Below the pieces are notes generated by a model. That model did not search any database, was not told the origin of the DNA, and saw only the letters and a program-made list of their open reading frames with translations. Below, in pieces: positions 1-58,660 of a DNA stretch of 64,000 bases (position 1 is its first letter; every line of letters starts with the position of its first letter). The translations under genes and the position numbers were made by a program. This stretch comes from a virus (lineage: Duplodnaviria > Caudoviricetes). The stretch is taken from the IMG/VR virus record IMGVR_UViG_3300008262_000055. One strand, 5' to 3'.

Positions 1-415
1 ACTTTCCTTTAGAAATAGGTGTAACATTAATGTATCCTGCTGGTCTATTAGTATCCATACCTTCTTCTGATAACATTTGTCTTACAATGTCTCTAAACCA
101 ACGATCTACGATTTCTTCCTCAGGGTCACCGTCAAAACCGTAACCCTCTTGCTTTAATTTTAACACAAATTGGTCGTTCCAGTCAAGTTCGAAAAAACCA
201 TTTCGAATATTATCTGGATTTACTTTGGTATCGAGGACGCTAACCCAAGGCTCATTTTTATGAGTAGCTCTTTCTTTTGGTGTTAGTTTAGCCTGCTCAG
301 CTTCTTCTTGTGCCCGAACTGTTTCGGCTACGGCTTTATCTCTGGCTGCTTGTAATGCTTCTTTTTCTGCCTTTAATTTATCGAGGCCAAACACTTTATC
401 TATAATTTTTTTCAT
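1..415 (-). CDS. hypothetical phage protein, runs off left edge (MKKIIDKVFGLDKLKAEKEA...EPWVSVLDTKVNPDNIRNGFFELDWND...)
   Basis: Hand-translated; ATG at 415 overlaps the queE stop (TAATG); open to position 1; absent from ORF track because no stop lies in the window. Confidence 0.8.
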   Translation of the reverse strand, partial: MKKIIDKVFGLDKLKAEKEALQAARDKAVAETVRAQEEAEQAKLTPKERATHKNEPWVSVLDTKVNPDNIRNGFFELDWNDQFVLKLKQEGYGFDGDPEEEIVDRWFRDIVRQMLSEEGMDTNRPAGYINVTPISKGK

Positions 416-1275
416 TAAGTTCCCCACTCATTTTTAAATAACGGTACCTGTAGTCTGTCGCTATAACGTAAACCTGCTTTTATTGCTAGTTCAGCCACCC
501 GTCGATTGTTAAGTGTGTAGACACTTTCTACACCTCCCACGGGCATCAAATATACAGGACCACTAAAACCTTCAGCACGATAAATGTCTACAGTCTCAAT
601 AGCTTCTTCTGCATCTTCTTCTGTAGCTATTACAAATTTAAGATATGTATAACCAACTTCTTCGTATTCACACACCACACTTGGTAATATAGCTTCGTGT
701 CTTGACTCTCCTGAACAGCTCAGTTTAGCACTTACACTGAAGGTTAATCTATGATAACCTCTATTTTCCATACCCCAGTCTAAAAGATATTTTTTAAATT
801 CTGGAGTGAGCGGTTGAGTACCGTTTGTTTCAAAGGTAATCTCTTTGAGATTTTTCATCTTAGGATGATCTAACAGTTCGGGGTAAGCACGTTGCCACCC
901 AAGCAGCGGTTCTCCTCCTGTGATGACGAGGTGTTCGTCTCTCCATTCATTGAACGGTAAAATCTCGCAGATTCTTTCTGCGATGGCGTCGGAAGTAAGC
1001 ATTGGGCTAAGGTCTTTAAAAGCAGGATGCCAGCTAGCGTAACTATCACAACCAGTAGAAACCAATGGAAGTTCTTCATATTTTTGAAATGATTCAATAT
1101 TTGCGTGTGTATAGGCAATGTCGTCGGCTTCAATGCTTATATCACCTTTAGGCATACCAAAGCCAGCACATTTAAAGTTACAACCAAATGTGCGTAAGAA
1201 CACAGAAGGTACGCCCATATAACGTCCTTCTCCTTGTACGCTGTAAAACAGCTCTGCGATTTTAATTTTGCTCAT
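415..1275 (-). CDS. queE: 7-carboxy-7-deazaguanine synthase (radical SAM)
   Basis: ELFYSVQGEG, FLRTFGCNFKC...GCDS, LVITGGEPL, ETNGT, YLMPVG and RLQV motifs typical of QueE. Confidence 0.9.
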   Translation of the reverse strand: MSKIKIAELFYSVQGEGRYMGVPSVFLRTFGCNFKCAGFGMPKGDISIEADDIAYTHANIESFQKYEELPLVSTGCDSYASWHPAFKDLSPMLTSDAIAERICEILPFNEWRDEHLVITGGEPLLGWQRAYPELLDHPKMKNLKEITFETNGTQPLTPEFKKYLLDWGMENRGYHRLTFSVSAKLSCSGESRHEAILPSVVCEYEEVGYTYLKFVIATEEDAEEAIETVDIYRAEGFSGPVYLMPVGGVESVYTLNNRRVAELAIKAGLRYSDRLQVPLFKNEWGT

Positions 1276-1540
1276 AGATGTTTGACCATTTTTTTAATTT
1301 TTCAAATTTAGCTTTTTTAGCACTTTCCATTTTGTCTTTGGAAATTATACCGTCTTTTTCTAAAAGATCAACCATAGCTAACAGGTCACCTAGTTCTTCT
1401 TCTAGATGCTCTCTGTTTGTCTTGGGCTTTCCTGGTTTGTAATTATCGATTCCAAAACGATTAATTTTAGAAACTGCTTGTATGACTTCGGAACATTCTT
1501 CTTGGAGAATGCTCATAATTTCGTGAGATTTAGTATTCAT
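1262..1540 (-). CDS. MazG-like nucleotide pyrophosphohydrolase
   Basis: EECSEVIQAVSK...LEEELGDLL acidic helical motif; start moved to MNTKSHE (1540). Confidence 0.75.
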   Translation of the reverse strand: MNTKSHEIMSILQEECSEVIQAVSKINRFGIDNYKPGKPKTNREHLEEELGDLLAMVDLLEKDGIISKDKMESAKKAKFEKLKKWSNIYEQN

Positions 1541-1547
1541 ACTAATA

Positions 1548-1715
1548 TTATACACTCTCTTTGTTCTCGTTGTCAAGCTTCTTAGATAACATCCAAGAAC
1601 CATCGCCATTATCTTTCCAAACTAAAACATCCCCTTCTTTCCAACCATTAGCTTCTAGGAGATCGGGCGGAAAGGTTATTACTCCGTCATCATCAATAGT
1701 TAAAACCCATTTCAT
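1548..1715 (-). CDS. small AbrB/MazE/SpoVT-like DNA-binding protein (55 aa)
   Basis: Hand-translated MKWVLTIDDDGVITFPPDLLEANGWKEGDVLVWKDNGDGSWMLSKK; fits the swapped-hairpin AbrB pattern; below ORF-track cutoff. Confidence 0.65.
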   Translation of the reverse strand: MKWVLTIDDDGVITFPPDLLEANGWKEGDVLVWKDNGDGSWMLSKKLDNENKESV

Positions 1716-2295
1716 ACAACTTCTCCTTAATTCGTTGAGCTACAATTTTATTACCTTCTTCGGTATAATGATTTACTAGTCCTCTATGAAAGGTCCAGTG
1801 ACTAGTAAAATCCATGTGTAATTCTTCAAAAGCATGATTACAACTAGTTGGTGTATGATCTATAGCTAGATAAGGCAGCTTAATCAATCTACGAATTTCT
1901 CTTCTAACAATATCGTAGATATCTGTTTGATATTGTTCATCATAATGATGTTTGAACCAATTGTAGGCTGTAACAGTACTTTCATTTTTAGGATCTAGAT
2001 TAGCTTCTACATCACTAAAGATCAAATCACAGTTAGCGTGTAACTTGCTTTGATGTATGGGATTAAGGGTGTGAACTCTAAAAGGACTAGTATGATTTAC
2101 TATTACTAAATCAAATTTATCTAAATTTTGATTCTTAATCTGATTTAATATTTTATATTCACCTACTCCGGCCTGAGAAACGTTAGTAATATTATAATCT
2201 TTTTTTAATAACTCGGGCCAACCAGACGGACTGTCGGGCCATTTAGCAGAGAAACTATCACCTGCTAATAAAATTTTTAAATTGTTTTTAGCCAT
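1693..2295 (-). CDS. SGNH/GDSL-hydrolase-like protein
   Basis: LAGDSFS near N-terminus, NVSQAGVG block II, C-terminal VNHYTEEGN. Confidence 0.55.
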   Translation of the reverse strand: MAKNNLKILLAGDSFSAKWPDSPSGWPELLKKDYNITNVSQAGVGEYKILNQIKNQNLDKFDLVIVNHTSPFRVHTLNPIHQSKLHANCDLIFSDVEANLDPKNESTVTAYNWFKHHYDEQYQTDIYDIVRREIRRLIKLPYLAIDHTPTSCNHAFEELHMDFTSHWTFHRGLVNHYTEEGNKIVAQRIKEKLYEMGFNY

Positions 2296-3095
2296 GGAAT
2301 AAATTTAGTAGCAATTAAATCGTGAAACGATTTGTTGTAGTGTTCATTGTCGTCAAGATAATATTTTTTGTGATCAATGAATTTCTTTCTAAAGAACGAT
2401 TCTACTGTAACAGGTGATATTATAGTAGACTTTAATTTTGTATAAAAATCAAACTTTTCCGGAAATTTTACTCTGTCGGTCATATTAAACAGATAGAGTT
2501 TACAACCGTGATCTTCACACATTCTATCCATAACAAGTACATCTTTAAAAAAATCTCTTTGTTCTAGATGAGTATTTAGATCAAAGAATAATTTTACATC
2601 CATGTATGTATCTTTTCGGAGATCTGGTTTTATTAGACCATTTTGATAATCAAAATTAATATCAGCAATTTTTCCAAAATCTTCAAATGTTGGTTTGTTA
2701 AGAAGTTGAAAACGATCGTCTTTAAATATTTGATCATAATACAGATCAACTAACGGATTCTTTTTTTCGTGTTTTAATGTAAAAAAATCTGCCGGTAATG
2801 TATCTTGCGAAAGAGTTTCGTTAAACGCAAGAACAAATCTATTAAAGCTAGATAATAAAACATACACTTCGTCAATGTCGGGGTGTCTATCTAACATAAC
2901 ACGTAACCAATCTGGATATATTCGATTACACACGCCCGGTAACGCATACACCGATGTTGGCTTAGAAAAAGTTTCAGCGTATGACTCTGCGTAGCTATTA
3001 TCATTCCACATACTATAACTACCAAAGCCAACCTTGCCGGGAATAGTTACATATCCGCACGTATGACTATCGCCTAAAAATAATGCCCTACTCAT
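2277..3095 (-). CDS. SGNH/GDSL-hydrolase-like protein
   Basis: FLGDSHTCG near N-terminus, C-terminal DNEHYN. Confidence 0.5.
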   Translation of the reverse strand: MSRALFLGDSHTCGYVTIPGKVGFGSYSMWNDNSYAESYAETFSKPTSVYALPGVCNRIYPDWLRVMLDRHPDIDEVYVLLSSFNRFVLAFNETLSQDTLPADFFTLKHEKKNPLVDLYYDQIFKDDRFQLLNKPTFEDFGKIADINFDYQNGLIKPDLRKDTYMDVKLFFDLNTHLEQRDFFKDVLVMDRMCEDHGCKLYLFNMTDRVKFPEKFDFYTKLKSTIISPVTVESFFRKKFIDHKKYYLDDNEHYNKSFHDLIATKFIPWLKTI

Positions 3096-3295
3096 GTGGT
3101 ATACCTGCTGTTATTTTTCTCGTGATATTCTTTTCTTAATCTACGACACTCTTCTTTAACTTCGATAGGAAAGTCAGGGCTGATTTCAGATATAGTACAA
3201 TCATAAATTTTAGTCCGCGGGTTTCCTAAGTCAGAAGTTAACATAATGAATACACAAAATAGCACTGCTATAATTATGATAATCCTGTCTCTCAT
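3092..3295 (-). CDS. hypothetical membrane-anchored protein
   Basis: MRDRIIIIIAVLFCVFIML hydrophobic N-terminus; ATGA overlap with upstream gene supports start 3295. Confidence 0.65.
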   Translation of the reverse strand: MRDRIIIIIAVLFCVFIMLTSDLGNPRTKIYDCTISEISPDFPIEVKEECRRLRKEYHEKNNSRYTT

Positions 3296-3486
3296 ATTTC
3301 CTCGCTGATCATTAGCTTGCAAAAGAAAGCATCTTTTTCGTTTTTAAAAAAGAACTTCATATCGTCAGCAGACACTTCAGTAGTGTATTTGTCCCCTGGC
3401 AAACCAAAGTGTTCAAGGATTTTAGCACAAGTTTCGTTCCAAAAAACATTACTTTGATTTTTCCAAGGTATCTTAATTTCAGTCAT
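3292..3486 (-). CDS. hypothetical protein
   Basis: ORF in operon packing with overlapping start/stop codons. Confidence 0.65.
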   Translation of the reverse strand: MTEIKIPWKNQSNVFWNETCAKILEHFGLPGDKYTTEVSADDMKFFFKNEKDAFFCKLMISEEI

Positions 3487-3682
3487 TAAAATATTTTTCC
3501 ATTACTTCAAGTTTATCCATATATTCAGCAATCTGAGCAACTTCTTTTTCAATAGCATCCATAAGATCTGTATGATCGTGAATGGCCATAGGATTAGCTA
3601 ACATAATGTCAACATTCATTTTATGTTTTAGAATGTGTGCTTCGAAATGTTGCTTTAGTGTTTCGACAATTTGCTTTTTCAT
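3479..3682 (-). CDS. hypothetical coiled-coil protein
   Basis: ORF in operon packing; helical composition. Confidence 0.7.
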   Translation of the reverse strand: MKKQIVETLKQHFEAHILKHKMNVDIMLANPMAIHDHTDLMDAIEKEVAQIAEYMDKLEVMEKYFND

Positions 3683-4071
3683 TTTGATTTCCTATAATTT
3701 CCCTTTTCGGGTATTACATGTCTAACCCCACCTGTGGGATCTTCCATGTCGCCTTTGCGTCTCGGTATTAGATGAACATGTGGCCATTCAACAGTTTGAC
3801 CAGCAGCTTTACCATAGTTGAGACCTACGTTAAATCCGTCCCATATACCCTGCTCTACTTGTAGTTTGCCAAATCGAACAGCATCTTCAATCGAGTCCAT
3901 CAACACAGCAACGGTGTTGTATTTAGGTACATATAATAGATGGCCTTCAGTTACTGGATATTTGTCAGCAAATACCTTAGTATGAAAGTCTTCGCTAATA
4001 ACAGTTTCCCATGGAGCGTCTGTTGAATCATCAATACACGGAGGTTGACTGTGTATTACGGTTTGGTTCAT
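3679..4071 (-). CDS. HIT family (histidine triad) nucleotide hydrolase
   Basis: DKYPVTEGHLLYVPK, GFNVGLNYGKAAGQTVEWPHVHLIPRR. Confidence 0.9.
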   Translation of the reverse strand: MNQTVIHSQPPCIDDSTDAPWETVISEDFHTKVFADKYPVTEGHLLYVPKYNTVAVLMDSIEDAVRFGKLQVEQGIWDGFNVGLNYGKAAGQTVEWPHVHLIPRRKGDMEDPTGGVRHVIPEKGNYRKSK

Positions 4072-4307
4072 CGTTGAAATTCCTTACGTTCTTGTGGTAG
4101 ATCGTTTTCTCGAACTACAAATTCACGCCCGCCTAAACTTCCTACAAATGCTTTGGTACGTTCCATATAGGCCAATCTTAGTTTAATAGTTTGGAATGCT
4201 ACTTCTAAAAATGCTTTAGGTTTGTATCCTAAAATATGCATATCAAAGTCTTTGCCTGCGTCTGTACAGTGAACTTTAATTTTTTGATCAATCATTTCGT
4301 CCACCAA
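4068..4307 (-). CDS. hypothetical protein
   Basis: ORF in operon packing. Confidence 0.6.
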   Translation of the reverse strand: MVDEMIDQKIKVHCTDAGKDFDMHILGYKPKAFLEVAFQTIKLRLAYMERTKAFVGSLGGREFVVRENDLPQERKEFQR

Positions 4308-4798
4308 TCTTCAAAAGGAAAATCAATCCAAACATCTTTTTCTGCTTTGTTTATCTCTTCGCCAATATAATCCATTGGCACTTCAGCTTTGCTAGCAAGA
4401 TTATCAAACACAGTGGCAAATCTTACATTGTCATTCCACACTTCGGCCCATTTGGAATCGTTAGAAAAACATCCACTAGGCCAGTCATTTAAAATCCAAT
4501 TAATTGTAGCACCAGTATCGTTGATATCATCAACAATGAGAATCTTCTTGTCATTAAACGCATCTTCAGCCATCCACAGATTGCTTTCAGTAGCGTGTTC
4601 CCCGCCGTTGTCTCTAAGGCTTACCTTTAATGCTTCACATGGCACATTAAAATATTGACTGATCATTACAGCAGGTAATAATCCGCCTCTAGTAATTCCT
4701 ACTATATAATCAGGACGCCAACTACTTAAACTGATATCTCTACATATTTTTGCTATCAGGTTTTGGAATTCTATCCAACTAACTTTACGCTTTACCAT
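4292..4798 (-). CDS. type I phosphoribosyltransferase (xanthine/guanine PRT-like)
   Basis: IVGITRGGLLPA and PRPP-binding ILIVDDINDTGAT; W.DFPFE C-terminus. Confidence 0.85.
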   Translation of the reverse strand: MVKRKVSWIEFQNLIAKICRDISLSSWRPDYIVGITRGGLLPAVMISQYFNVPCEALKVSLRDNGGEHATESNLWMAEDAFNDKKILIVDDINDTGATINWILNDWPSGCFSNDSKWAEVWNDNVRFATVFDNLASKAEVPMDYIGEEINKAEKDVWIDFPFEDWWTK

Positions 4799-5249
4799 TA
4801 GACTCCTTACGTTGTGCTATATATTTTTCGTTTTGTATCCATTTGTTGTTAACAAGAAATCCCCATTCTCTTTTTTGAGGACCTGGCATGAATAACGTCC
4901 AAGCAGTTACTCCTTCTTTTAGCTCAATACGATGATAACTGTTTGGACTACAAATTCTAAAATGACCAGGGCCACGCCAGTATTTTATTTCGTTAATTTT
5001 TTTACCTAGAGTGTTAAACACTGGGACCCATTCGTAGTACCCACCAGCAAGAATTAGTGTAGCATACGGCCATGGATGATCATGAACATCATCGGGATCA
5101 CCTTTTAAGAACTTATGTAAGAATATGTTAAAGGGAAAACGCTCGCGATCTTTAAGAAAAAGATAGTAGCGTTCTAGATATGGTTCGTTATCTACACGAT
5201 CCATGATGATACGTTTGCGACCTAGTCGTTCAAGCAGTTTCAACAACAT
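4785..5249 (-). CDS. cupin-like metal-binding protein
   Basis: VHDHPW...GGYYE and YHRIEL cupin-type His/Glu motifs. Confidence 0.55.
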   Translation of the reverse strand: MLLKLLERLGRKRIIMDRVDNEPYLERYYLFLKDRERFPFNIFLHKFLKGDPDDVHDHPWPYATLILAGGYYEWVPVFNTLGKKINEIKYWRGPGHFRICSPNSYHRIELKEGVTAWTLFMPGPQKREWGFLVNNKWIQNEKYIAQRKESNGKA

Positions 5250-5652
5250 CTCTTACCTCTTGGTCTAGATAACGGATTAATTCTTTGTCAGTAGGTTCGA
5301 CAGTATAATTCTGTTTGAAAAAGATCTCATAACTGTCTGAACCATATTTACCAATGCCATATAATATTGTAGCATCATTTCCGTCCCAGGTCAAATAACC
5401 TCTGCTCATTCCGATCAATCTCTTATAACGGACATTAACCATTCCCAAAGGCTGTATGATGCTTTTGACGAATTCTTCATCAGCGTTTATCAGTGTGATA
5501 GGATCGGGAAACCAATATAGGAATTCTGGCAGGCAGGTCTTAACAGGCTTTCGACTGGTCTGATTAAGCATTATGACACCTACAAAGTGTTCCCATGAGT
5601 TCGAGATCTGTTGTTGTACCATTAGGTCGTCACGTAGAGGGTTGAACCACAT
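5230..5652 (-). CDS. MBD4-like HhH-GPD DNA glycosylase (stand-alone catalytic domain)
   Basis: MLNQTS, IQPLGM, LYGIGKYGSDSYEIF (HhH) and EPTDKEL (catalytic Asp position) match the MBD4 glycosylase pattern. Confidence 0.8.
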   Translation of the reverse strand: MWFNPLRDDLMVQQQISNSWEHFVGVIMLNQTSRKPVKTCLPEFLYWFPDPITLINADEEFVKSIIQPLGMVNVRYKRLIGMSRGYLTWDGNDATILYGIGKYGSDSYEIFFKQNYTVEPTDKELIRYLDQEVRDVVETA

Positions 5653-5654
5653 GA

Positions 5655-5726
5655 TTATTTCCTAATAAAGATCCATAAGATGACACCAACGACGATTCCA
5701 ACTATCATACCTAGAGCGAACAGCAT
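5655..5726 (-). CDS. 23-aa single-TM micropeptide MLFALGMIVGIVVGVILWIFIRK
   Basis: Hand-translated; ATG overlaps the upstream stop (TAATG); fills the gap exactly. Confidence 0.6.
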   Translation of the reverse strand: MLFALGMIVGIVVGVILWIFIRK

Positions 5727-5944
5727 TATTCTACTCCTTCGCCAAACCAGTCATCGACCTGCTGTTCAGCTTCTTGCTGTGTCATGGCATGTACGAATAT
5801 TTTAGCAAGTTCACCTTGAGTATGTTGAATATTAAATTTAATAACACCTGCAGGGATCAAATCCCAGTCTCTTTCAACTACAAATTCTTGTAGATGTTTC
5901 ATTCTGTGTATTAAATTATCTGTGAGGGCTTTGGCTGTGCTCAT
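5726..5944 (-). CDS. hypothetical protein
   Basis: ORF in operon packing. Confidence 0.65.
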   Translation of the reverse strand: MSTAKALTDNLIHRMKHLQEFVVERDWDLIPAGVIKFNIQHTQGELAKIFVHAMTQQEAEQQVDDWFGEGVE

Positions 5945-6777
5945 CTTGGGGCAAACTCCTGTTGTAGTTTAATGTTATCAAAGAATTCTTTCTTAGTATT
6001 GCCGTCGTCTTTGAAAGCACCTTTTAATACTGTAGTCTGTGTAAGACTAGAGTGTGCCATAATACCGCGATTCTCACAGCATCCGTGTACTGCTTGGATG
6101 TAGACACCTAGATCTTTGGCTCCTGTGGCACGTTCGATCTCCCTAGCAATGTCATTACAAAGTTCCTCCTGGAGAGTACCTCGACGGGCACACCACTGAG
6201 CGATCCTTGTATACTTGCTAAGTCCGATGAGTTTCTGAGCCGCAATAAGACCAATATAAGCAACACCAGTAACGGGTTGGTGATGATGGCTGCACATGCT
6301 ACGAAGCTCACTGCGAACAACCAACATACCTTCATAACGATCCGCTGTGTCGTTGGGAAATGCTGTTGCGTCTGGTGCTGGTTCATATCTTCCTGCCATT
6401 ATTTCATTAAAATACATCTTAGCCAGTCTACGTGCTGTACCCTGACTGTTAGGATCGTTTTCACGATCAATCAGCAAACGATCTAGCACTAGTTCAAATG
6501 CTTCTGTTGCTTCGTCGATTAGTTTTTCTTTATCGCCTTCGTGTAAGAAGTCGCTGATATTATCTCCAGCCCAGAATCGTTTTCCTTCACGCTTCATTTT
6601 AAAGCGAAGATGATCACCAAGATATGCTTCTTTGTAGCCACCGTCGCCTGCCATTGCGTCAAGTGCTGTTTCTTTTTTAATATAAACCGTTTTACCTAAT
6701 GGTTCATATTTTTCTTCTTTAAAATCTTTATTCACATCTGCGTGAATTACAGGATCCGGTGTAAATTTGGTTGTCAA
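5941..6777 (-). CDS. folE: GTP cyclohydrolase I
   Basis: SMCSHHHQP, IGLSKYTRI, LQEEL, HGCCENRG motifs; TTG start with GGAG SD. Confidence 0.95.
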   Translation of the reverse strand: MTTKFTPDPVIHADVNKDFKEEKYEPLGKTVYIKKETALDAMAGDGGYKEAYLGDHLRFKMKREGKRFWAGDNISDFLHEGDKEKLIDEATEAFELVLDRLLIDRENDPNSQGTARRLAKMYFNEIMAGRYEPAPDATAFPNDTADRYEGMLVVRSELRSMCSHHHQPVTGVAYIGLIAAQKLIGLSKYTRIAQWCARRGTLQEELCNDIAREIERATGAKDLGVYIQAVHGCCENRGIMAHSSLTQTTVLKGAFKDDGNTKKEFFDNIKLQQEFAPR

Positions 6778-6812
6778 TTATTTTTCTCCGAGTTATTGTC
6801 GTGGATGACATA

Positions 6813-7913
6813 TTATTTTAACATCTTTAATAGTTTATCGCAACTAAAGAAATCATTCGTTAATATATCGACCTGTTTATTTAGGCTTGGTAAAAACTTT
6901 TCATAATTTTCCATGTACTGGATTATCTTATGGCAGACTTCTTTCCTGTGGATTTCATATGATTCAAAAGATTCAGTCCATTCGCTAGGATACTTAAATG
7001 TATCAAACGCCATTTCACTGTAGCTTAATCTATCAGGAACCATAGGAATAGCATCTACTAACGCACCTTCGTACCAGCTAATGCCTAGTGTTTCTTGTAA
7101 ATTAGCACTGAACACTAACTTTGCCTCTCCTAGCATATTATGATATTCATTTTTTGTCAACGGGTATTCTTGACAGACTTTGAACTCATATTGAGGAAGA
7201 TGTTTTTTAAGATCTTCAAAGATTGGCAATTGTTTTTCTGGAGCAATACGATGTGGAAATAGTATAAGATTACGTTTAGGCATATTCTTATACATTAACA
7301 ATGTATCAGACATATATTCCATAGGCCATCCAGAACGAACTACATTTTTCCATTCGCCTTTAAGGGCATCTGCTACATCGTCTTCTATCCAAGGATTTTC
7401 AAACATTCCGTCATTGATAAGGTTACGGATAAACATCTCAATATGAAAATTTGTAGCAAAGTAGTTGTGATCAAATGCGTAGAAGAAACTCTTCTCGGCA
7501 TTTCTAACCCAAGGCTTATTGCCTACAAGACGACCTAGGAAGTCTTGAGGATCATAACTGCCAGCATGCCATAATCCGTGTGTTGTTACCGGAATGCCCA
7601 GCAGTTCACTCATGTACTTTAAGTTTATGATACCAGGATGCCAAGCATCAGTAAAAATAAAGTGATCACCGGGATGAACGGCTCCGTTACAAAATAAGCG
7701 GCCCATCTGCTCAACCTGATTAGCTTTGTATATATTGGTACCACCAAAATTAAGAAAGGCACCAGGAGTAGTGGCACTAGGAATATCCTGAGGGCCAGAG
7801 ATAATTTGAACATCATGTCCCCTTTTTTGTAACAAGGTAGGCAAGTGAGATTTCCACTGGCCTGTGTACCTTGTTTCTACTGCTTCGAGATCTACAAGAA
7901 ATACCTTAGCCAT
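6813..7913 (-). CDS. GT-B fold glycosyltransferase (GT4-like)
   Basis: C-terminal FPHRIAPEK and E-x7-E (ETLGISWYE) nucleotide-sugar-binding motifs; start MAKVFLVD at 7913. Confidence 0.7.
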   Translation of the reverse strand: MAKVFLVDLEAVETRYTGQWKSHLPTLLQKRGHDVQIISGPQDIPSATTPGAFLNFGGTNIYKANQVEQMGRLFCNGAVHPGDHFIFTDAWHPGIINLKYMSELLGIPVTTHGLWHAGSYDPQDFLGRLVGNKPWVRNAEKSFFYAFDHNYFATNFHIEMFIRNLINDGMFENPWIEDDVADALKGEWKNVVRSGWPMEYMSDTLLMYKNMPKRNLILFPHRIAPEKQLPIFEDLKKHLPQYEFKVCQEYPLTKNEYHNMLGEAKLVFSANLQETLGISWYEGALVDAIPMVPDRLSYSEMAFDTFKYPSEWTESFESYEIHRKEVCHKIIQYMENYEKFLPSLNKQVDILTNDFFSCDKLLKMLK

Positions 7914-8124
7914 GGCGTTTATTGTATGGCTTGTATCCACGATCCGTGTAGCCACGATTGTTATCCCAACGTCTTGGAGGACGTTGACTATTTAAAAACG
8001 CACGATAATTTTCATTATCTTTATTGTATAAATGTGCGGGATTAAACTCACGCAACTCGAAACGGCAAAAATCCAAGTAGCGGTCGAGATCGTCAAAGAT
8101 TTTCTCAACTTGTTGTTTCATCAT
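7906..8124 (-). CDS. hypothetical protein
   Basis: ORF with AAGGA SD, operon packing. Confidence 0.7.
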   Translation of the reverse strand: MMKQQVEKIFDDLDRYLDFCRFELREFNPAHLYNKDNENYRAFLNSQRPPRRWDNNRGYTDRGYKPYNKRHG

Positions 8125-8133
8125 GTTTCCTTT

Positions 8134-8340
8134 TTAATATTTGATGAATGAACCATTTTCTCCGTCTTCGGAGACCTCAATCCAAACCTCACGGTCTGGG
8201 TACTTTGCGTGAATCTGAGCGTATAAATCATCGCTCATCATCTCACAACTCTTATAGTCTAGCGACAATACACCTTCGTTGCTAGAATACAATTTTTCCA
8301 ACCATCGTTTGAATTGTATAAATTCCACATCTCTGTCATT
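8134..8340 (-). pseudogene. 5'-truncated QueD-like/T-fold protein (C-terminal half NDRDVEFIQFKRWLEKLY...KSCEMMSDDLY...VSEDGENG)
   Basis: Frame is open from 8340 but preceded by in-frame TAG with no ATG or SD. From memory, it resembles the C-terminal half of a phage T-fold family found near folE/queE. Confidence 0.5.
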
Positions 8341-8531
8341 GCGTCTCTAGTCATATGAAAGTTATATGTGCTTGAAGAATTAACCTTGCCATCATCATTT
8401 AGACATTCTTGAATAATATCTACAGAAAATAATCCTTTAGGATTGATAGATTCCCAAGATTCTACACGAACCCTATATGCTGGACTTTCTTTAACAGTGA
8501 TGTTTTTAATATTTAGATCAGTGTGTCTCAT
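8259..8531 (-). CDS. hypothetical protein (C-terminus possibly chimeric)
   Basis: ORF; last ~27 codons run through the other frame of the 8134-8340 fragment. Confidence 0.6.
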   Translation of the reverse strand: MRHTDLNIKNITVKESPAYRVRVESWESINPKGLFSVDIIQECLNDDGKVNSSSTYNFHMTRDAMTEMWNLYNSNDGWKNCILATKVYCR

Positions 8532-8881
8532 CTTTTTAATGACTCCATCATTACAATTTTACCCAACGCATCACCAAGATCTTGATCTTCAGTGATAACG
8601 TGCATGCTATTAAAATTACGATCTTTGTGGCTATCGTAACTACGAGTTTCTACAACATAGCCGCCACTGGCTTTGTAAATCTGTAGACGCATACCATCAC
8701 TACAAAGTCTGTCCGATTCTACTACTTGAGGAATATCTTGTTCATACTCGTCGCTGTTCAACCAATTACGAATACGTTGTCTAAATGTTAGTTTCACTTT
8801 CGTTGCCTTTTTTATTTTACGACTGGGTCTAATTGCTTGATGTTTAGCACCAGATATAGTTGCGTAACCCATAGTTCCCAT
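8528..8881 (-). CDS. hypothetical protein
   Basis: ORF in operon packing. Confidence 0.7.
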   Translation of the reverse strand: MGTMGYATISGAKHQAIRPSRKIKKATKVKLTFRQRIRNWLNSDEYEQDIPQVVESDRLCSDGMRLQIYKASGGYVVETRSYDSHKDRNFNSMHVITEDQDLGDALGKIVMMESLKR

Positions 8882-9438
8882 TATTTGATGATCTCATCCT
8901 TGCCATATTGGTCCCAATCTGTAAAGCGATCTCTTCCCAGAAGGTCCTGTAGGTTATGGCACCATACCCCAGAATTAGTTGCGTTAAAATCTTTGTCGTC
9001 AATCTTTAATGTAGCGTTATAACCTAATTGATTTAGATAAGGTAATTTTACACTAATTTGCGGAATAAATCTACGTTTTTCGGTAAGACCGCTCTCTAGC
9101 AATCCTTCCGTTTCGCGTACATCAAAATCTAATGTACACCACAGATCATATTCACTATCTAAACATACATAGATCATACTTTCCCAAGGACGCCAAGTTT
9201 CCGAATCATTAGTGCCCTTAGTTTTAAAACTTTGATTAGCACCAAAGTAGATATGCTTGATATGTTTAGATTCGTCTGTGTAAGATCTACTTTCTTTGAC
9301 CATTTCTAAAATAATGTAAGGATCATGTACACCTACTACAAATAGAGTTTTCATTCCATAAGCAGGAGTCTTTTCAATCTCTACACCTGTAAAAAATGTA
9401 ATGTTATCTTTTATACCATCTTTATAATCACGTTTCAT
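8881..9438 (-). CDS. hypothetical protein in the deazaguanine cluster
   Basis: ORF (FFTGVEIEKTPAYGMKTLFV...HIYFGANQSF); function not recognised. Confidence 0.75.
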   Translation of the reverse strand: MKRDYKDGIKDNITFFTGVEIEKTPAYGMKTLFVVGVHDPYIILEMVKESRSYTDESKHIKHIYFGANQSFKTKGTNDSETWRPWESMIYVCLDSEYDLWCTLDFDVRETEGLLESGLTEKRRFIPQISVKLPYLNQLGYNATLKIDDKDFNATNSGVWCHNLQDLLGRDRFTDWDQYGKDEIIK

Positions 9439-9935
9439 TCTTCAAACCCCGATGATTTCATTTCACGGCTTCTCATACGTTCTTGATATTCTGCTTCATG
9501 CTTGTCGCAAAGTGTGCGGATCCACCCACCATTACGAGATTTGCCAGGATCTCCACAAGTTTCGCAAGTCCTAGCCGCCCACGATTCTGCCATACGCACC
9601 ATACCATGAATCTGTTCATCGCCACCGTCGTAATAAAAACGCAGCCCGCCAAATTTTTCTTTGACCTGTACAGCGACTACTTGATCAATAGCATCTGGAA
9701 CTTCTCTTAGTTCCTCTGGTGCGGCCTTGCTGTTAAATGTAATTGCCCATTGACGTTGTTTTTCTTTCCAATCAATGTGATGTTGAATATTACCGCATAG
9801 GCTATCGAGGACGTTATACCAACCATCGCCGCATTCAAACCCCCAACACATAAGTGTTTCTTTCATGTCTCCATGACGGTTTTTGAAAATTTTTGGATAT
9901 TTGCTACACAGTGCTTCGTCAAGTTCTTGTTTCAC
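9435..9935 (-). CDS. hypothetical protein with C-terminal CxxC...C zinc motif
   Basis: QVKEKFGGLRFYY, CETCG, TLCDKH. Confidence 0.75.
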   Translation of the reverse strand: MKQELDEALCSKYPKIFKNRHGDMKETLMCWGFECGDGWYNVLDSLCGNIQHHIDWKEKQRQWAITFNSKAAPEELREVPDAIDQVVAVQVKEKFGGLRFYYDGGDEQIHGMVRMAESWAARTCETCGDPGKSRNGGWIRTLCDKHEAEYQERMRSREMKSSGFEE

Positions 9936-10159
9936 CAGGTGCTCACATCAGTGATATCAACGGTAGTATCGATGTCCTTATCGATATCGTTGAATAGATT
10001 GAATTTTACAACAACGGTAGGACCAATTCCGCTGCTGCTACTTTCTTCTAGAGTGAACCACTCAACTTCTTTAAAGTGAGCGGCCATTTTTGCCAATTTT
10101 TCAATTTGACCTCGATTGAGGCAAAACTGAGCCGGTTGATACTTTTTATCTTTCGTCAT
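9932..10159 (-). CDS. hypothetical protein
   Basis: ORF; start moved to MTKDKKY to avoid long overlap. Confidence 0.6.
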   Translation of the reverse strand: MTKDKKYQPAQFCLNRGQIEKLAKMAAHFKEVEWFTLEESSSSGIGPTVVVKFNLFNDIDKDIDTTVDITDVSTW

Positions 10160-10358
10160 CGTCGTAATGGATAGTTTCGTGATCATGTTCCCATTGCTTA
10201 CGTTTAAGTATAGCAATTTCATCCTTTACTGTCAACTTATGTTTCTTCAAATCAGTCAATCTTTGGTCAGTAAAGTTGCCAGTTCTTTCCAAAGTTTCAA
10301 TTTGCTTGTCAAGTGCCCTGTGTGCTTCTTCCAAATGCTTGATTCTATTTTCATACAT
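10146..10358 (-). CDS. YdcH/DUF465-like coiled-coil protein
   Basis: HLEEAHRALDKQI...LKKHKLTVKDEI pattern. Confidence 0.65.
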   Translation of the reverse strand: MYENRIKHLEEAHRALDKQIETLERTGNFTDQRLTDLKKHKLTVKDEIAILKRKQWEHDHETIHYDDDER

Positions 10359-11877
10359 TCTGAGCCTCCTGTTCGTAATAAAGTTCTTCCAATTCTTTTA
10401 GCTTTTCATCTTCTGGGTCCATAAAATCTTCTACAGCACCAGTTTTGGCTTCTTCTTCGAATAAACTATTAAATTGATTTTTAGCAACACCGCCTTTAAG
10501 ACGCATACCCATCATATTATTGAGCATTGGACGAGCTTGTTCAATCATCTGCATTGGAGTTTCACTCTTAAACAATTCTTTTACGAATCGATCAAAGTAA
10601 AGTATATTTCTAGGCACCCAGTCTGAGTATTCATCACTCATGTCTGAGTCTTTGACCTTCTTCCATTCTCTCCAATCCGGATCAAATCTTGCTGTTTCGA
10701 TATCCATTAAATTATTGGCACGTTGTACTGCTTTAATATGACAGTAGGTATTATGTGCCATCATTAGAGCATAACCAAAACTGTCCCATGATGTTTTACC
10801 TTCTTTACCTACTTTGTTTAACATTCCTGGTTTATACCAACAAATGTCTCCTTGAGTAAGTCTTCTTCCTATTTCTGATTCGAAAGGGAACGGGATGTTA
10901 AAAGCCTGGCTAAGGGCTTTATTGTCGGGGGCTTTGTCCATGATGACTGACCAACGTTTGTTGGTATGTTGGGCGTTGGTGTAGACAAGTCCGTGGGCTG
11001 TTGCGATAAACGGGCTGGCACAATCAAAAGATATGGTAAAGTTTTCATTGATATTTTCCCTTACTTGACGTTGAATAGAAGTTAGATAGCAGGACCAATC
11101 CAACTGGGCTGTACCTAAGAAGTGCATCCAGTTCCTATCATCTAAGAGTTTTTCGTCTCTAAGAATAATAAGGCGTTTCAATGCGATTTCCATATCGCAC
11201 ATATTTTTACCACCCATCGCCCAACCTTCAGTTGGCAGATGTTTAACCGCTTCATACCAAGCCTGTGCTGTTTCCCAATCGCTGCCTTGTAGCACGTTTA
11301 AGAACTTGGTTTGCCCTAATCGATTACGAATGAAATAATCATTATTGTGTAAAGTTTTATCTAAGCAATCATTAAAACTTTTTAAACCAGTTTTTGGACT
11401 ATGAATATGATCACACGCCCACGTAGGCACGTCTAACAACATCGACCAGTCGGCAGTTAATTCTAACCAGTTAAGGATATTATCTCGAACTTTATTTGCA
11501 GCGGCACCTTCAAAGTTTTGCCAATCAAATTTAAGAACACCTTTACCAATCTGATAACCACCGGAATCACCTACAATCACTGTATTAGCACGATCTCGAT
11601 CTTGTATCATAGCATCCTGTGTTATGGTTTTATTTAGATCTAACTGTGCGTGACCTGCTGAATACAGTCCGTACTTGTAAGTAAAGTATCCTTCTTCCGG
11701 ATTTAAAAAGTTCATACCTTCGATGCCTCGATCAAAGCCTTTGGGAATTCGATCATCTGGAACAAATTTATCAAATCTTTGTTTGCTGACGTAGGTGCTA
11801 AAAAAGCAGCTAATGGCTGGCAGATATACTGCGTAATCTTTTTGTAAAGGTGTTAAATTAACTGGTGGCTGTTTCAT
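10351..11877 (-). CDS. dpdA: TGT-fold guanine transglycosylase, probably DNA-acting DpdA type
   Basis: TGT catalytic motifs in order: GDSGGYQ, LLDVP, VLQG, AMGG, HFLG, SFDCASP; same locus as folE and queE. Confidence 0.7.
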   Translation of the reverse strand: MKQPPVNLTPLQKDYAVYLPAISCFFSTYVSKQRFDKFVPDDRIPKGFDRGIEGMNFLNPEEGYFTYKYGLYSAGHAQLDLNKTITQDAMIQDRDRANTVIVGDSGGYQIGKGVLKFDWQNFEGAAANKVRDNILNWLELTADWSMLLDVPTWACDHIHSPKTGLKSFNDCLDKTLHNNDYFIRNRLGQTKFLNVLQGSDWETAQAWYEAVKHLPTEGWAMGGKNMCDMEIALKRLIILRDEKLLDDRNWMHFLGTAQLDWSCYLTSIQRQVRENINENFTISFDCASPFIATAHGLVYTNAQHTNKRWSVIMDKAPDNKALSQAFNIPFPFESEIGRRLTQGDICWYKPGMLNKVGKEGKTSWDSFGYALMMAHNTYCHIKAVQRANNLMDIETARFDPDWREWKKVKDSDMSDEYSDWVPRNILYFDRFVKELFKSETPMQMIEQARPMLNNMMGMRLKGGVAKNQFNSLFEEEAKTGAVEDFMDPEDEKLKELEELYYEQEAQNV

Positions 11878-12226
11878 GTTCTCTCGCTAAAATTGTTGTA
11901 AGTTCTAATCTAGTCTTTGCCTGTTCTAATTGATCTAATGCTATACGAACTGCTTCGTTGCTAGAAGCCAGCTTGTACCATTCATTTTCTTGAGCACGTT
12001 TCTTACGTGCCCATTGAACTATATCTAATACGTCTTGATCTAGGCCTACAGTAGCATAACTGGTACTCATGTTGATCCATGAGTTGCCGTCAAACACCTG
12101 CATATCATTACCCCATACACGGAGCATACCTTGTATAGGATTGTTGTTGTTTTGATTAATGTACGGCATACTGGTGTTACCACCAGTTACCGTTAACCCG
12201 CTAATACCTTGTAGACCTTTAATCAT
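11858..12226 (-). CDS. hypothetical protein
   Basis: ORF in operon packing. Confidence 0.7.
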   Translation of the reverse strand: MIKGLQGISGLTVTGGNTSMPYINQNNNNPIQGMLRVWGNDMQVFDGNSWINMSTSYATVGLDQDVLDIVQWARKKRAQENEWYKLASSNEAVRIALDQLEQAKTRLELTTILAREHETATS

Positions 12227-12963
12227 TATTGTTGCTGTGCTGGAATAATGTATTTGTAAGTAGCAAGTCCGCTGTCTAAAGTGATTTGGATAGCACCTTC
12301 ATTACTTAAAGCCATTTTAGTATTGTTAACATCAGCAGCTTTTAAGATACTTAGAATTGGAAGTACTGGCCATGTCCATCCGCGATCAAGTTTACCTACT
12401 ACATTCTGTGCGAATACAAATTCGCCGCCGTGTGTTGAAGCATCGCCAAATATAAACTTTAGATTATTGCCATCTGTTTTTGCCAAGAATGTTGGATGTT
12501 CACTATGAGCACCTGCCTGAAAGTTAAAACGTGTAACAGAAGCTACACTTGGCTCAAGCTCTACATCCCACTTAACACCACGGAACTTAACTGTTTTCAT
12601 CTTTTCGTTGATGATTTCTTGATTCATAAAACGATAATCGTTCTTAAAGTCGCCATCTTTGTTTTCAAAGTGAATACCAACAGGAATAGTTTCTCCGTTA
12701 CGTTCTGCTGTAGTAATGTTTATCTTAGCATCCTCTTTGTATTCTGGACCGTCTATTAGATATTTTAATTTCTGTAGTTGCGGCATTCCAAATGTACCAA
12801 TCATATCTGGATATGGATTGTGTGTGCTAGCTTCCATAATTACTGAACGGTCATCAGCCATTGAGAAGATGCTTGTGCCTTCTTCTGTGCCTGTGACCTT
12901 AACTGTGGTTAAGAAGCCTAGGTTTTGCGTATGTGATACGATGTCTTGTAAAATATCTTTCAT
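12226..12963 (-). CDS. gp45: DNA polymerase sliding clamp (T4 gp45-like)
   Basis: 245 aa; directly downstream of polB; two-domain beta-rich pattern ending LATYKYIIPA. Confidence 0.7.
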   Translation of the reverse strand: MKDILQDIVSHTQNLGFLTTVKVTGTEEGTSIFSMADDRSVIMEASTHNPYPDMIGTFGMPQLQKLKYLIDGPEYKEDAKINITTAERNGETIPVGIHFENKDGDFKNDYRFMNQEIINEKMKTVKFRGVKWDVELEPSVASVTRFNFQAGAHSEHPTFLAKTDGNNLKFIFGDASTHGGEFVFAQNVVGKLDRGWTWPVLPILSILKAADVNNTKMALSNEGAIQITLDSGLATYKYIIPAQQQ

Positions 12964-12992
12964 TTAGAGAGTCTCCATGTATATTAAGATTA

Positions 12993-12999
12993 TATTTAG
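12993..12999 (-). promoter_or_regulatory. T4-late-like promoter variant (CTAAATA)
   Basis: Variant of recurring NTAAATA motif upstream of the clamp gene. Confidence 0.35.
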
Positions 13000-13025
13000 A
13001 TCTTGAGAAAAAATCAACCTAGAAA

Positions 13026-18076: not shown

Positions 18077-19249
18077 TTATTTACCGCTTTTCATATTGGC
18101 ACACCAATGATACATTTTAGCCTTTTCGCCGGAAGCATTCTTGGCTTTTTTTCTTAAATCAGTTACTGATCCATCACAACTAGCACCGGCACGTTTTACA
18201 CGCCCTGGCCTACTTTTGCCTTTGACTTTGCCATCGGCAAAATTTTCTACGTTGTACCTAGGATCAGTTTTTTGACGCTTCATTCCCTTAGGTTGTTTAG
18301 GATCAACCGGATCAATATCAGTAGTAGTTAATCCTGTTTTTTCTAAATCTTGAATATACTTGTGTTCTTCTTCTTCGTCACCAAACGATAAAATAGTACT
18401 TGGAGGCCCTTGGCCAAAATCGTGCTTGCCTAATCCCTTAAGATTAGCAATATGCATTCCTAGTTTATACCAATCGTAGACATCACTGACATCAACTTTT
18501 ACTGTACCTTTTGGCATAGTAGGTTTAGCTTCCGGACCATATGGCTCATCATTAACGTGTCGATCTTCACCACCAGCACCGTCCCCGCCGATACCACCAT
18601 CACCGCTGTACCCTACTGCTGTACCGTAATAGCCATATGGTCCTGGACCATAAGCAGCCCACCGACTACGTTTCTTTTTTCTTCTAGCTTCGTCTATGTT
18701 TTCAGTTGGCGTATTAGATAAAATTTCTTTAGCATCACGTAACCCGTCTAATACTTTTTTAAGACTGTCTTCATCTGCTTGATATTTGATAGCAATCCCG
18801 CCAGCAGCCTGCCACTTTCTAATGTTTACACCATAGTCGTCAATTAGTATATTAGGTACACCATTGGTATTAGCATACATTTGTTTTTCATGTTCAAACA
18901 CCCACGCATCGGCAGGCACGTTGATATGTTTTGCTAACCACTCTTTCTTGCCTTTGATACTACCTGCTTTGTCAAAGTTTAATGGACTACTTAAGATTTT
19001 GTATCCGCCAGCAAAGTTTTTAACAATGCTTAATAATTTATTAGCGGTAGGAAATGCTGGAAGTCCTTTAAAAAGTTCGTAGGCATTTGAATCTTTAAAA
19101 AACGTTTCCCATTGATCCTGAGTCATCTTGTTGTAATGTTCTACATCGTGTAATCCGCCAACGTGATTAAACAAGTCAGCAAGAACACCGTCCATGTCAA
19201 CGTAGACTGTAACACCTTTAGGTAACTGATTTAATTCTTTAGCTCGCAT
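18077..19249 (-). CDS. HAD-family 5'(3')-deoxyribonucleotidase-like protein with C-terminal extension
   Basis: YVDMDGVLAD and ILIDD HAD motifs; start MRAKEL. Confidence 0.75.
   Translation of the reverse strand: MRAKELNQLPKGVTVYVDMDGVLADLFNHVGGLHDVEHYNKMTQDQWETFFKDSNAYELFKGLPAFPTANKLLSIVKNFAGGYKILSSPLNFDKAGSIKGKKEWLAKHINVPADAWVFEHEKQMYANTNGVPNILIDDYGVNIRKWQAAGGIAIKYQADEDSLKKVLDGLRDAKEILSNTPTENIDEARRKKKRSRWAAYGPGPYGYYGTAVGYSGDGGIGGDGAGGEDRHVNDEPYGPEAKPTMPKGTVKVDVSDVYDWYKLGMHIANLKGLGKHDFGQGPPSTILSFGDEEEEHKYIQDLEKTGLTTTDIDPVDPKQPKGMKRQKTDPRYNVENFADGKVKGKSRPGRVKRAGASCDGSVTDLRKKAKNASGEKAKMYHWCANMKSGK
18078..18084 (-). promoter_or_regulatory. T4-late-like promoter GTAAATA
   Basis: Motif 4 nt upstream of ATG 18073. 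Confidence 0.45.
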
Positions 19250-19323
19250 CAATGATCACCGTAAGGATTTATTGGACGATCTTCTTCGCTCTGTTGTTCG
19301 GGGTATACTGGATATTTGTTCAT
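19249..19323 (-). CDS. 24-aa micro-[27 protein letters not shown]
   Basis: Hand-translated; ATGA overlap upstream and TGATG overlap downstream. Confidence 0.55.
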
Positions 19324-25429: not shown

Positions 25430-25432
25430 TGA

Positions 25433-57924: not shown

Positions 57925-58115
57925 TACCAGTGTCTTATCACATTTGCTATAATAAACAGGCAGGTGATAATATGAATTATTACCCAGAACGTTTTAAGAA
58001 ATAATGCTATCCTTGCTTCTTTAACAGTAAGGATAGGAACATCCGGACGATCATCGTCGGTATGTCCCATTAGGTGCCCGGTTGCCCGAGCCCATATTTT
58101 TTCTAGACTGTTCAT
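57924..58115 (-). CDS. hypothetical membrane protein
   Basis: C-terminal TM segment. Confidence 0.7.
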   Translation of the reverse strand: MNSLEKIWARATGHLMGHTDDDRPDVPILTVKEARIALFLKTFWVIIHIITCLFIIANVIRHW

Positions 58116-58660
58116 TCTCTTATAACAGGATTATCGCCTTCGTAGGTAGCCGAGTTACCTGCGTGTTCAAATACTTCTACTGATTTGATACGCACTGATG
58201 GATTCAGTGGATAACGATGATTGCCGTTCTTTAGCAACCAATCCATCTTATCGTAGCACATTTTGGCAAACAGTTCGCAGCCAACACCTTCTACAATACG
58301 TAAGTCGCAAACACCACTGCGTCGGAACGGTTCAGTTTGTACACGTTCTGGATTGCCGTCGTGTTCTGGATTTGAACTCCAACCAGCCATTTCTTTGAAT
58401 CTATCTAGCAATGGGTCGTCTTGTGCAATTACAGTAGTGTGGTCAAACATATGATCTGCCCACGCTTTGAAATCTTTTAGACCACCGAAGTCCATGCCCC
58501 AATTCTTTTCATCTAGCGTGTCGCATTCGAACACAAGTTTGATGCCAATTGAGTAACCGTGTAGCAGTGAGCAATGACTGTGTGTTGCTCTCCACTGTCT
58601 AAAACAGCATGACAGCCCTCTGTCGTTGCCGTATGTTTTTGTTGAAAGATATTTTGCCAT
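58112..58660 (-). CDS. queD: 6-carboxy-5,6,7,8-tetrahydropterin synthase
   Basis: HCSLLHGY, GMDFGGLK, FDH, EVFEH; AAGGAG SD. Confidence 0.88.
   Translation of the reverse strand: MAKYLSTKTYGNDRGLSCCFRQWRATHSHCSLLHGYSIGIKLVFECDTLDEKNWGMDFGGLKDFKAWADHMFDHTTVIAQDDPLLDRFKEMAGWSSNPEHDGNPERVQTEPFRRSGVCDLRIVEGVGCELFAKMCYDKMDWLLKNGNHRYPLNPSVRIKSVEVFEHAGNSATYEGDNPVIRE

Follow-up and report, generated by a model that had tools for sequence, protein, structure and literature searches.

The viral record IMGVR_UViG_3300008262_000055 (the window, meaning the whole 64,000-nt stretch of DNA analyzed) derives from a freshwater jumbo phage and carries a 7-deazaguanine gene module inside its replication gene block. 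We read this module, with moderate confidence, as a QueC-free, DpdL-type system for 7-deazaguanine modification of DNA in which a GT4-like glycosyltransferase (GT) most likely glycosylates the base. Module genes occupy positions 415-11877, all on the minus strand (Table 1). The initial annotation had described the locus as a deazaguanine DNA-modification cluster paired with a glycosyltransferase, with sugar attachment by analogy with glycosyl-queuosine; a DNA-type deazaguanine module and the tie of the GT to it both hold up, whereas the module is not free of precedent and the glycosyl-queuosine analogy fails. Modification of DNA with 7-deazaguanines is a major phage counter-defence. To our knowledge, eight 7-deazaguanine derivatives occur in DNA, none of them sugar-bearing, and we know of no glycosylated purine in any DNA. 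A glycosylated deazaguanine, if true, would possibly constitute a new class of DNA modification.

Window proteins were assigned to families by Pfam, PHROGs and NCBIfam searches. Transcription runs from family-B DNA polymerase (PolB) and the sliding clamp through a 122-aa open reading frame (ORF), a 508-aa DpdA-like protein, small ORFs, a 185-aa ORF (o185) and a 117-aa ORF, continues with a 90-aa ORF running into a T-fold remnant, a 72-aa ORF (o72b), the GT, FolE, an HhH-GPD protein and a cupin, and ends with a purine phosphoribosyltransferase (PRTase), a HIT protein, several small ORFs with two DUF6071-like paralogues, MazG and QueE. The co-orientation of folE, queE, the GT gene and the TGT-fold gene downstream of polB and the clamp was correctly annotated at the outset, as were their positions. 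A search of IMG/VR with a 12-sequence alignment of the DpdA-like family recovered the same gene order in 80 loci (PolB, clamp, DpdA-like, o185, DpdL, o72b, GT, FolE, cupin, PRTase, HIT, QueE), a recurrence that argues for more than chance. The PolB-clamp-DpdA-like order is found in 76-77 of 83 loci and also in the PA5oct-like phage PAC2. Presence was counted in the 35 loci whose downstream DNA extends for 5.5 kb or more, where o185 occurs in every locus and the GT in 34 (other genes in Table 1). The early suspicion that the 185-aa ORF is linked to the module is thereby borne out, and the GT and the 185-aa protein are integral conserved module members that lie outside the published DpdL pathway, which leaves them unaccounted for. 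Freshwater and lake metagenomes from 15 studies contain the window stretch, and the remainder of the window encodes jumbo-phage functions.

FolE, QueD and QueE constitute the established route from GTP to 7-carboxy-7-deazaguanine (CDG). All three are encoded in the window, with queD 46 kb from the cluster, and Pfam and PHROG matches agree with the identities and the queD position first given to them. QueC had been reported as missing, and tblastn with phage QueC likewise returned 0 matches in the window; beyond it, the QueC model PF06508 had 0 matches in the genome records of five relatives (including a 353-kb record that is 99% complete), and the same model found its targets in 14 of 14 control genomes. 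One PTPS gene was found in four of the five relatives searched. Because QueC was not found alongside FolE, QueD and QueE, the pathway is predicted to go no further than CDG or what DpdL makes from it, as in Cellulophaga phage phiST, and the module would stop at CDG or a derivative. Two sequence features of these enzymes are recorded here in their own right. The window QueE (30% identical to QueE of phage Marzo) has a CxxxC and, ~40 residues further on, the cysteine of a GCDS in place of a compact CxxxCxxC, and the Marzo enzyme is alike; the window QueD (36% identical to ACP17 QueD) reads CxxxHGY where CxxxHGH is canonical, its Cys being immediately preceded by a His, a variant shared by ACP17 QueD.

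The closest known system is the phiST-type 2'-deoxy-7-deazaguanosine (dDG) pathway, here with a larger DpdA-like enzyme. DNA of phiST contains dDG, all G is replaced in phiST-type phages, and the DpdL and DpdA3 proteins were described by Cui, Hutinet et al. (NAR 2023, PMC10516641), where an LxxxHRHxF signature defines DpdL, a QueD-like, pterin- or purine-binding T-fold protein and the predicted CDG decarboxylase of phiST. At the dpdL position, relatives of the window encode a 123-139-aa protein with the motif LGYPHRHIF, and this family matches phiST DpdL directly (34% identity, E 6e-10). The two systems further share FolE, QueD and QueE with no QueC, a MazG gene nearby (beside dpdL in phiST) and a distant TGT-fold transglycosylase beside replication genes. 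They differ in the transglycosylase, which has 508 aa in the window versus 259 in phiST and is nearer to the DpdA2 type than to DpdA3, and in the GT4-like enzyme, the 185-aa partner, PRTase and HIT, which phiST lacks.

Inspection of the window itself reveals no LxxxHRHxF motif, where residues 64-131 of DpdL are all that is kept. This is the T-fold fragment that had been put forward as a possible base-tailoring part; it is instead a truncated dpdL, 84% identical to the intact DpdL of locus L004, and the system is therefore the described phiST-type DpdL pathway and not one without precedent. The remnant and the ORF before it meet at a short near-repeat, ATGACTAGAGAC / ATGACAGAGAT (8338-8341, minus strand). 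Contigs of four public runs from different studies are near-identical to the window, leave it exactly at 8338 and 8341, and go on to supply the part of dpdL that the window lacks, its 5' half (...HFRVWLSVTHNDRD...), and an upstream ORF with a normal 3' end. None of the listed public contigs bridges the window junction, and an exact search for it in IMG/VR gave 0 matches. Because the public contigs carry intact genes at this point, the truncation is private to the assembly or an artefact, likely a private deletion or misassembly, and the natural population carries an intact dpdL.

Deazaguanine very probably enters DNA through the 508-aa enzyme, for which searches of Pfam, PHROG, NCBIfam and PDB sequences gave 0 matches. 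The Pfam TGT model (PF01702) likewise does not match it, and 4 of 66 relatives match that model at E 0.0045 or worse, so homology to TGT is visible at the profile-profile and structure level only. With the AlphaFold2 (AF2) model of the protein (pLDDT 91), the top 50 Foldseek matches are all Z. mobilis TGT (best E 8e-9). VIA-align gave ArcTGT at Z 18.7, QTRT2 at 17.4, TGT at 17.3, the bacterial DpdA 7ui4 at 15.6 and Cap10 at 13.8, where unrelated TIM barrels rank below the TGT superfamily (Z ≤11.7). Viral models (BFVD) matching the structure include DpdA of Vibrio phage nt-1 (E 5e-10) and phiST DpdA (E 1e-3), and hhalign assigns the family a probability of 96.7% to ACP17 DpdA and 91.8% to E. 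coli TGT. The alignment with E. coli TGT places D104 (DSGG), D149, Q197/G198, L254/G255 and D285 (FDC) at the catalytic and guanine-binding residues, with D285 at the nucleophile position and D104 at the general acid/base position, opposite the E. coli motifs MFDC and TDSGG, respectively. These residues are invariant or nearly so among the 66 relatives, whose alignment contains S73, D104, S105, G107, P151, H252 and D285 as invariant positions and GDSGGYQ, LDvPT, LNVLQG, HFLG and FDcaSP as conserved motifs.

The first description credited this protein with all catalytic motifs, which is right for both aspartates and the guanine-recognition residues and wrong for the zinc CxCxxC, which is missing, while the Pfam TGT model goes unmatched. 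Of the zinc site, the HN histidine H375 alone is kept, and the hhalign match ends before this region; a long helical extension follows at the C-terminus. Modeling places the protein in the TGT/DpdA superfamily, and with the fold and catalytic residues kept and the zinc motif lost it reads as a divergent and probably active transglycosylase. Fold, catalytic residues, gene context and the modified G of the relative PA5oct together suggest that DNA would be its substrate; the fold alone cannot indicate DNA, because tRNA enzymes score above bacterial DpdA. There are 0 tRNA genes in the window, which is uninformative on the target. The bacterial Dpd enzyme (7ui4) shares the fold and is likewise proposed to exchange bases in DNA; it inserts preQ0 and works with DpdB, in contrast to the window protein, which has the helical C-terminal extension and no CxCxxC. 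The 508-aa family comprises 944 clusters at 50% identity and at least nearly 8000 close relatives, so that both this and the GT family (at least nearly 8000 significant relatives) are abundant in metagenomes.

The GT gene lies 36 bp upstream of folE. Because homologues measure 356-371 aa, its true start is probably M15 (ATG at 7913), giving a protein of 366 aa. The window GT returned 0 matches in Pfam, PHROGs, NCBIfam and PDB sequence searches, and an exact look-up in a contig index found no record of it. The Pfam family Glycos_transf_1 is matched by 3 of 33 GT relatives (best 3.8e-6) and related models by few, the window GT matching none. The AF2 model (pLDDT 86) has a full-length two-Rossmann-domain GT-B fold, for which the top Foldseek matches are GT4. 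Small-molecule GT4 enzymes score at Z 20-24, among them sucrose-phosphate synthase (6kih, Z 24.4), BshA (Z 23.8) and tetrahydrobiopterin glucosyltransferase (5zer, Z 20.6; also 9v0l), and a further match is T4 alpha-glucosyltransferase (1y6f, Z 17.7). E274-x7-E282, R222 and K227 are invariant or nearly so across 33 GT sequences; because the E-x7-E and R/K residues fit an active GT4 donor site, the GT is predicted, and looks, to be active as an enzyme. A complex prediction for the GT and residues 1-460 of the DpdA-like protein scored 0.00 ("no answer"), which speaks neither for nor against interaction.

Full-length relatives of the GT occur in 18 isolate records, namely the PA5oct group (11), Phosso, ACP17 (two), BUDD, X1, BUCT-ZZ01 and BCSR5, and all 18 carry dpdL within 3 kb. 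Among these phages are T4-like and jumbo phages as well as one of 469 kb, and the order of the genes is rearranged: QueD, FolE, o185-like, DpdA, GT, DpdL, QueE in ACP17; GT, DpdA, DpdL, QueE in X1; QueE, PRTase, x, QueD, FolE, x, DpdA, DpdL, GT in BUCT-ZZ01; and DpdA-like, GT, DpdL, x, cupin, PRTase, QueE in PAC2. Their DpdA is of the nt-1/VH7D kind (DpdA2) in ACP17, X1 and BUCT-ZZ01 and of the 508-aa kind in PA5oct and Phosso, as in the window. Vibrio phage 2.275.O encodes a window-kind DpdA and, by annotation, QueF, a queuosine-biosynthesis protein and an amidohydrolase, with neither GT nor DpdL. Since the GT stands beside two DpdA subfamilies and is missing from 2.275.O, it follows the DpdL branch and not one transglycosylase; within that branch it is frequent, not obligatory. 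The co-occurrence across phages that had been suggested as a check is thus positive, and the linked GT-B is genuine by structure and genetically tied to the module, both in the metagenomic loci and, through dpdL, in isolates. No description of a GT travelling with dpdL was found in the literature searched, and PMC10516641 makes no mention of a glycosyltransferase.

We are fairly confident that the GT is part of the deazaguanine pathway. It is improbable that the enzyme is instead unrelated to deazaguanine, with another target (a DNA base, a protein or the cell envelope) and a position explained by the clustering of early and replication genes. GT4 enzymes do act mostly on small molecules, lipids and polysaccharides, cell-wall enzymes are encoded elsewhere in the window, and five weaker GT4 matches, in Xanthomonas and Erwinia phages, come without dpdL. 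The full-length relatives, however, occur in dpdL phages only, at most 3 kb from dpdL, across T4-like, jumbo and 469-kb phages, and an unrelated enzyme sits poorly with its recurrence in nearly every metagenomic locus.

Two cultured relatives are informative about this gene set. Pseudomonas jumbo phage PA5oct (Wroclawvirus) is the closest, with a DpdA-like protein of the same family (43% identity) and, immediately behind it, the GT (41%), then DpdL, cupin, PRTase and QueE; it differs in having HFH for HRH in DpdL and its o185 homologue ~28 kb away beside an alcohol-dehydrogenase-like (ADH-like) gene. PA5oct DNA is resistant to five enzymes whose sites contain G, and sensors of DNA hypermodification restrict it; the END-nuclease preprint (PMC12191111), which shows this, also noted its QueE and PTPS. 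In Acidovorax phage ACP17, a compact run encodes homologues of QueD, of the GT (34% identity) and of DpdL (54%), as well as one matching the C-terminal part of o185; its DpdA is of the DpdA2 kind, and published work covered DpdL and DpdA only.

Association of the GT with the deazaguanine genes recurs across many unrelated phages, which makes a sugar on the DNA base plausible. Retention of that sugar on the final DNA base remains a tentative proposal, and we hold no more firmly the broader one that virions of this phage group contain DNA with a glycosylated 7-deazaguanine, which would be the first purine in DNA to bear a sugar. Neither glycosylated deazaguanine nor any other purine glycosylation in DNA was found in the literature searched. 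As a mechanism, the analogy with glycosyl-queuosine was rejected on chemical grounds, where the acceptor cyclopentenediol is missing from this pathway. Huimycin is the closer precedent, in which a GT4-type glycosyltransferase attaches N-acetylglucosamine to the 2-amino group of a 7-deazapurine (PMC7439116), so that even plain 7-deazaguanine would have an acceptor with chemical precedent. The huimycin enzyme HuiG of Kutzneria albida, likened here by description, has homologues of FolE, QueD and QueE encoded next to it; it differs in belonging to secondary metabolism, with a free base made via QueC (preQ0) and no DpdA, and its family carries Pfam Glyco_transf_4 (10.64898/2026.04.15.718813). The T4 alpha- and beta-glucosyltransferases are likewise phage GT-B enzymes that place a sugar on a modified DNA base after replication. 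In contrast to the purine considered here, their acceptor is a pyrimidine hydroxymethyl (5-hydroxymethylcytosine), and the match to the alpha enzyme is weaker than those to small-molecule GT4 enzymes.

Genes of sugar metabolism adjoin the module in some relatives. Directly after the GT lies a short gene of the UDP-glucose/GDP-mannose dehydrogenase family in 7-8 loci and an NDP-sugar (nucleoside diphosphate sugar) epimerase/4,6-dehydratase in two, and a Gfo/Idh/MocA oxidoreductase with an ADH-like gene stands just before o185 in three. Elsewhere in the cluster, a 2-oxoglutarate (2OG)-Fe(II) oxygenase occurs in up to three loci (two of the matches weak) and a PfkB sugar kinase in two. The ADH and o185 pairing is shared by PA5oct-like phages and three metagenomic loci, often with a Gfo/Idh/MocA gene. 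Neighbours of these kinds favour a GT that functions with nucleotide sugars as part of the operon.

The principal competing account keeps the GT in the pathway and leaves no sugar in DNA: glycosylation of a precursor (CDG, 7-deazaguanine or a pterin intermediate) would be transient, as an activation or carrier step, or the GT would be an accessory of DpdL or DpdA, and the base would be plain dDG or dCDG. We regard this as rather unlikely, though a serious contender. No dDG was obtained in E. coli from DpdL plus DpdA of either phiST or ACP17, and in the authors' view further enzymes may be required (PMC10516641); for ACP17, these could include the GT, which with the 185-aa protein may explain the failure of DpdL plus DpdA alone. 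The same account is consistent with a GT that tracks dpdL and not one DpdA subfamily, with tetrahydrobiopterin glucosyltransferases among the structural matches, with the pterin- or purine-binding T-fold of DpdL, and with free 7-deazapurines as known GT4 acceptors. It is opposed by phiST, which reaches dDG without a GT, by the nucleotide-sugar tailoring genes adjoining the GT in some relatives, which would be costly if the step were only transient, and by the pterin glucosyltransferases not being the top matches.

A different route of entry can be imagined at the nucleotide level, where the PRTase would make a deazapurine nucleotide, MazG would remove dGTP and PolB would incorporate the product, leaving the TGT-like enzyme to tRNA or salvage. 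This is highly improbable: every virus known with these bases encodes DpdA, insertion is read in the field as post-replicative, PA5oct protection is motif-dependent and not complete, and in 76-77 of 83 loci the TGT-like gene separates the clamp from the other module genes. Points that would fit nucleotide-level entry are the placement of the PRTase within the deazaguanine genes of three lineages (the PA5oct and BUCT-ZZ01 modules among them), the MazG, HIT and NT5C-domain proteins encoded in the window, an IMPDH/GMP-reductase gene adjoining the PRTase in one relative, and the replacement of all G in phiST-type phages.

Our preferred reading, base glycosylation within a DpdL-type DNA-modification module, would proceed as follows. 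FolE, QueD and QueE would convert GTP to CDG by established chemistry, and DpdL, the decarboxylase predicted by Cui, Hutinet et al. (2023), would convert CDG to 7-deazaguanine. The TGT-like enzyme would then swap guanine in phage DNA for the deazaguanine base, and the PRTase most likely salvages the freed guanine toward GTP or processes the free base. The GT, possibly aided by o185 and the cupin, would use an NDP-sugar on the base before or after insertion, where the acceptor could be the 2-amino group, as in huimycin, or a hydroxyl installed by the cupin or a 2OG oxygenase, and the sugar may be tailored by phage nucleotide-sugar enzymes in some lineages. MazG and HIT most likely trim nucleotide pools.

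Several observations weigh against this scheme. On the side of the sugar, C7 of CDG and of 7-deazaguanine has no hydroxyl that could accept one; dDG forms in phiST in the absence of this GT (PMC10516641), and phiST is one of about ten dpdL-carrying phage records that lack the enzyme; and nucleotide-sugar genes are found in a minority of loci, none of them in the window. On the side of base synthesis and insertion, the window copy of dpdL is without its metal-binding half, the zinc motif CxCxxC is absent from the 508-aa sequence, and that protein resembles tRNA enzymes (Z 17-19) more closely in structure than it does bacterial DpdA (Z 15.6). Activity of DpdA3 and DpdA4 could not be demonstrated in E. 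coli (PMC10516641), and the DNA evidence in this phage group consists of restriction patterns only. The sugar question is directly testable in cultured phages, where the members concerned are PA5oct, a phage-therapy candidate with G-modified DNA, ACP17, Xanthomonas phage X1, Synechococcus phage BUCT-ZZ01 and Sinorhizobium phage Phosso.

Table 1. Module genes and associated features of the window, in order of coordinates, with the number of loci carrying each gene among the 35 counted.
Feature	Coordinates	Strand	Loci (of 35)	Basis
QueE, radical-SAM CDG synthase	415..1275	-	28	phrog_2076 E 7.9e-50; NCBIfam QueE models
MazG-like NTP pyrophosphohydrolase, overlaps queE	1262..1609	-		PF03819 E 2e-7
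Two adjacent paralogues, phage DUF6071 / GDSL-SGNH-like	1693-2295, 2277-3095	-	4-5	language-model scores 0.95-0.99
HIT-family nucleotide hydrolase or transferase	3679..4071	-	23	PF01230 E 1.5e-8
6-oxopurine phosphoribosyltransferase-like enzyme	4292..4798	-	27	PF00156 E 2.2e-14
Three-His cupin	4785..5249	-	29	phrog_4786 E 1.2e-37; HDHPW...YHRIE motif (HxH...H)
HhH-GPD DNA-glycosylase-like protein, 140 aa, accessory	5230..5652	-	9	PF00730 E 1.7e-7
FolE, GTP cyclohydrolase I, N-terminal extension	5941..6777	-	27	PF01227 E 4.5e-38; phrog_2197
GT4-like GT-B glycosyltransferase, 366/380 aa	6813..7955	-	34	AF2 model, GT-B matches
o72b, conserved 72-aa protein, basic tail, always between dpdL and GT	7906..8124	-	33	
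3' half of dpdL (residues 64-131), HRH metal motif missing	8137..8340	-	31	84% identical to intact DpdL of L004
Small 90-aa ORF, 3' end fused out of frame onto dpdL remnant	8259..8531	-		comparison with relatives
Conserved 117-aa protein	8528..8881	-	21	
o185, conserved 185-aa partner	8881..9438	-	35	
DpdA-like transglycosylase (predicted), 508 aa, TGT fold, without zinc CxCxxC	10351..11877	-		AF2 model, Foldseek, VIA-align, hhalign
Sliding clamp and family-B DNA polymerase (replication context)	12226..15692	-		PolB Pfam match; synteny
Sliding clamp	12226-12963	-		synteny with annotated PCNA of phage PAC2
polB	13026-15692	-		Pfam match
QueD/PTPS-family enzyme, 46 kb from cluster	58112..58660	-		PF01242 E 6e-14

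The remaining module genes are less readily assigned. The o185 protein has 0 matches in Pfam, PHROGs, NCBIfam and PDB sequence searches; E20, E22, D104, K145, D147 and D148 are invariant, and homologues occur in PA5oct (43% identity) and directly upstream of ACP17 dpdA. Its language-model neighbors are small phage GT-A-like proteins at scores of 0.85-0.89, which lie below the reliability mark and serve as a lead only. A role as a second glycosyltransferase was not adopted, given this score and a DxD-like motif that is not conserved (only D104). In PAC2 and two further loci, a gene with an ADH_N (zinc alcohol-dehydrogenase-like) domain precedes the o185 family (L089:4081-5492 in PAC2, L048:10152-11560, L033:11167-12577). 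The 117-aa protein has no family match in Pfam, PHROG or NCBIfam. Judged by its sequence motif, the cupin is a probable metal-dependent oxygenase or decarboxylase; BLAST detects no similarity between it and the phiST cupin, so we do not claim the two as the same component. Against the PDB, the PRTase matches purine PRTases, best 1vdm at 1e-10. In a divergent relative, an IMPDH/GMP-reductase gene adjoins the PRTase within the deazaguanine cluster (L080:16740-17792, L080:17970-18566), a pairing reminiscent of the steps that toyocamycin-type pathways carry out at the nucleotide level. As regards the HhH-GPD protein, a gene annotated as a glycosylase lies between clamp and GT in Phosso, and in END nucleases an inactive EndoIII domain serves as a sensor.

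Elsewhere in the window, a ClpB-like double AAA+ chaperone (780 aa) and DnaJ (269 aa) are encoded at 23087-26723, a 391-aa protein with an NT5C deoxynucleotidase domain at 18077-19252, and a UvdE UV-damage endonuclease at 54885-55943. A single 2841-aa ORF occupies 43701-52226; after it come a subtilase (41133-42791) and proteins of the Ig-domain and Mtd-like kinds, and together these are probably a structural or tail-fibre region.

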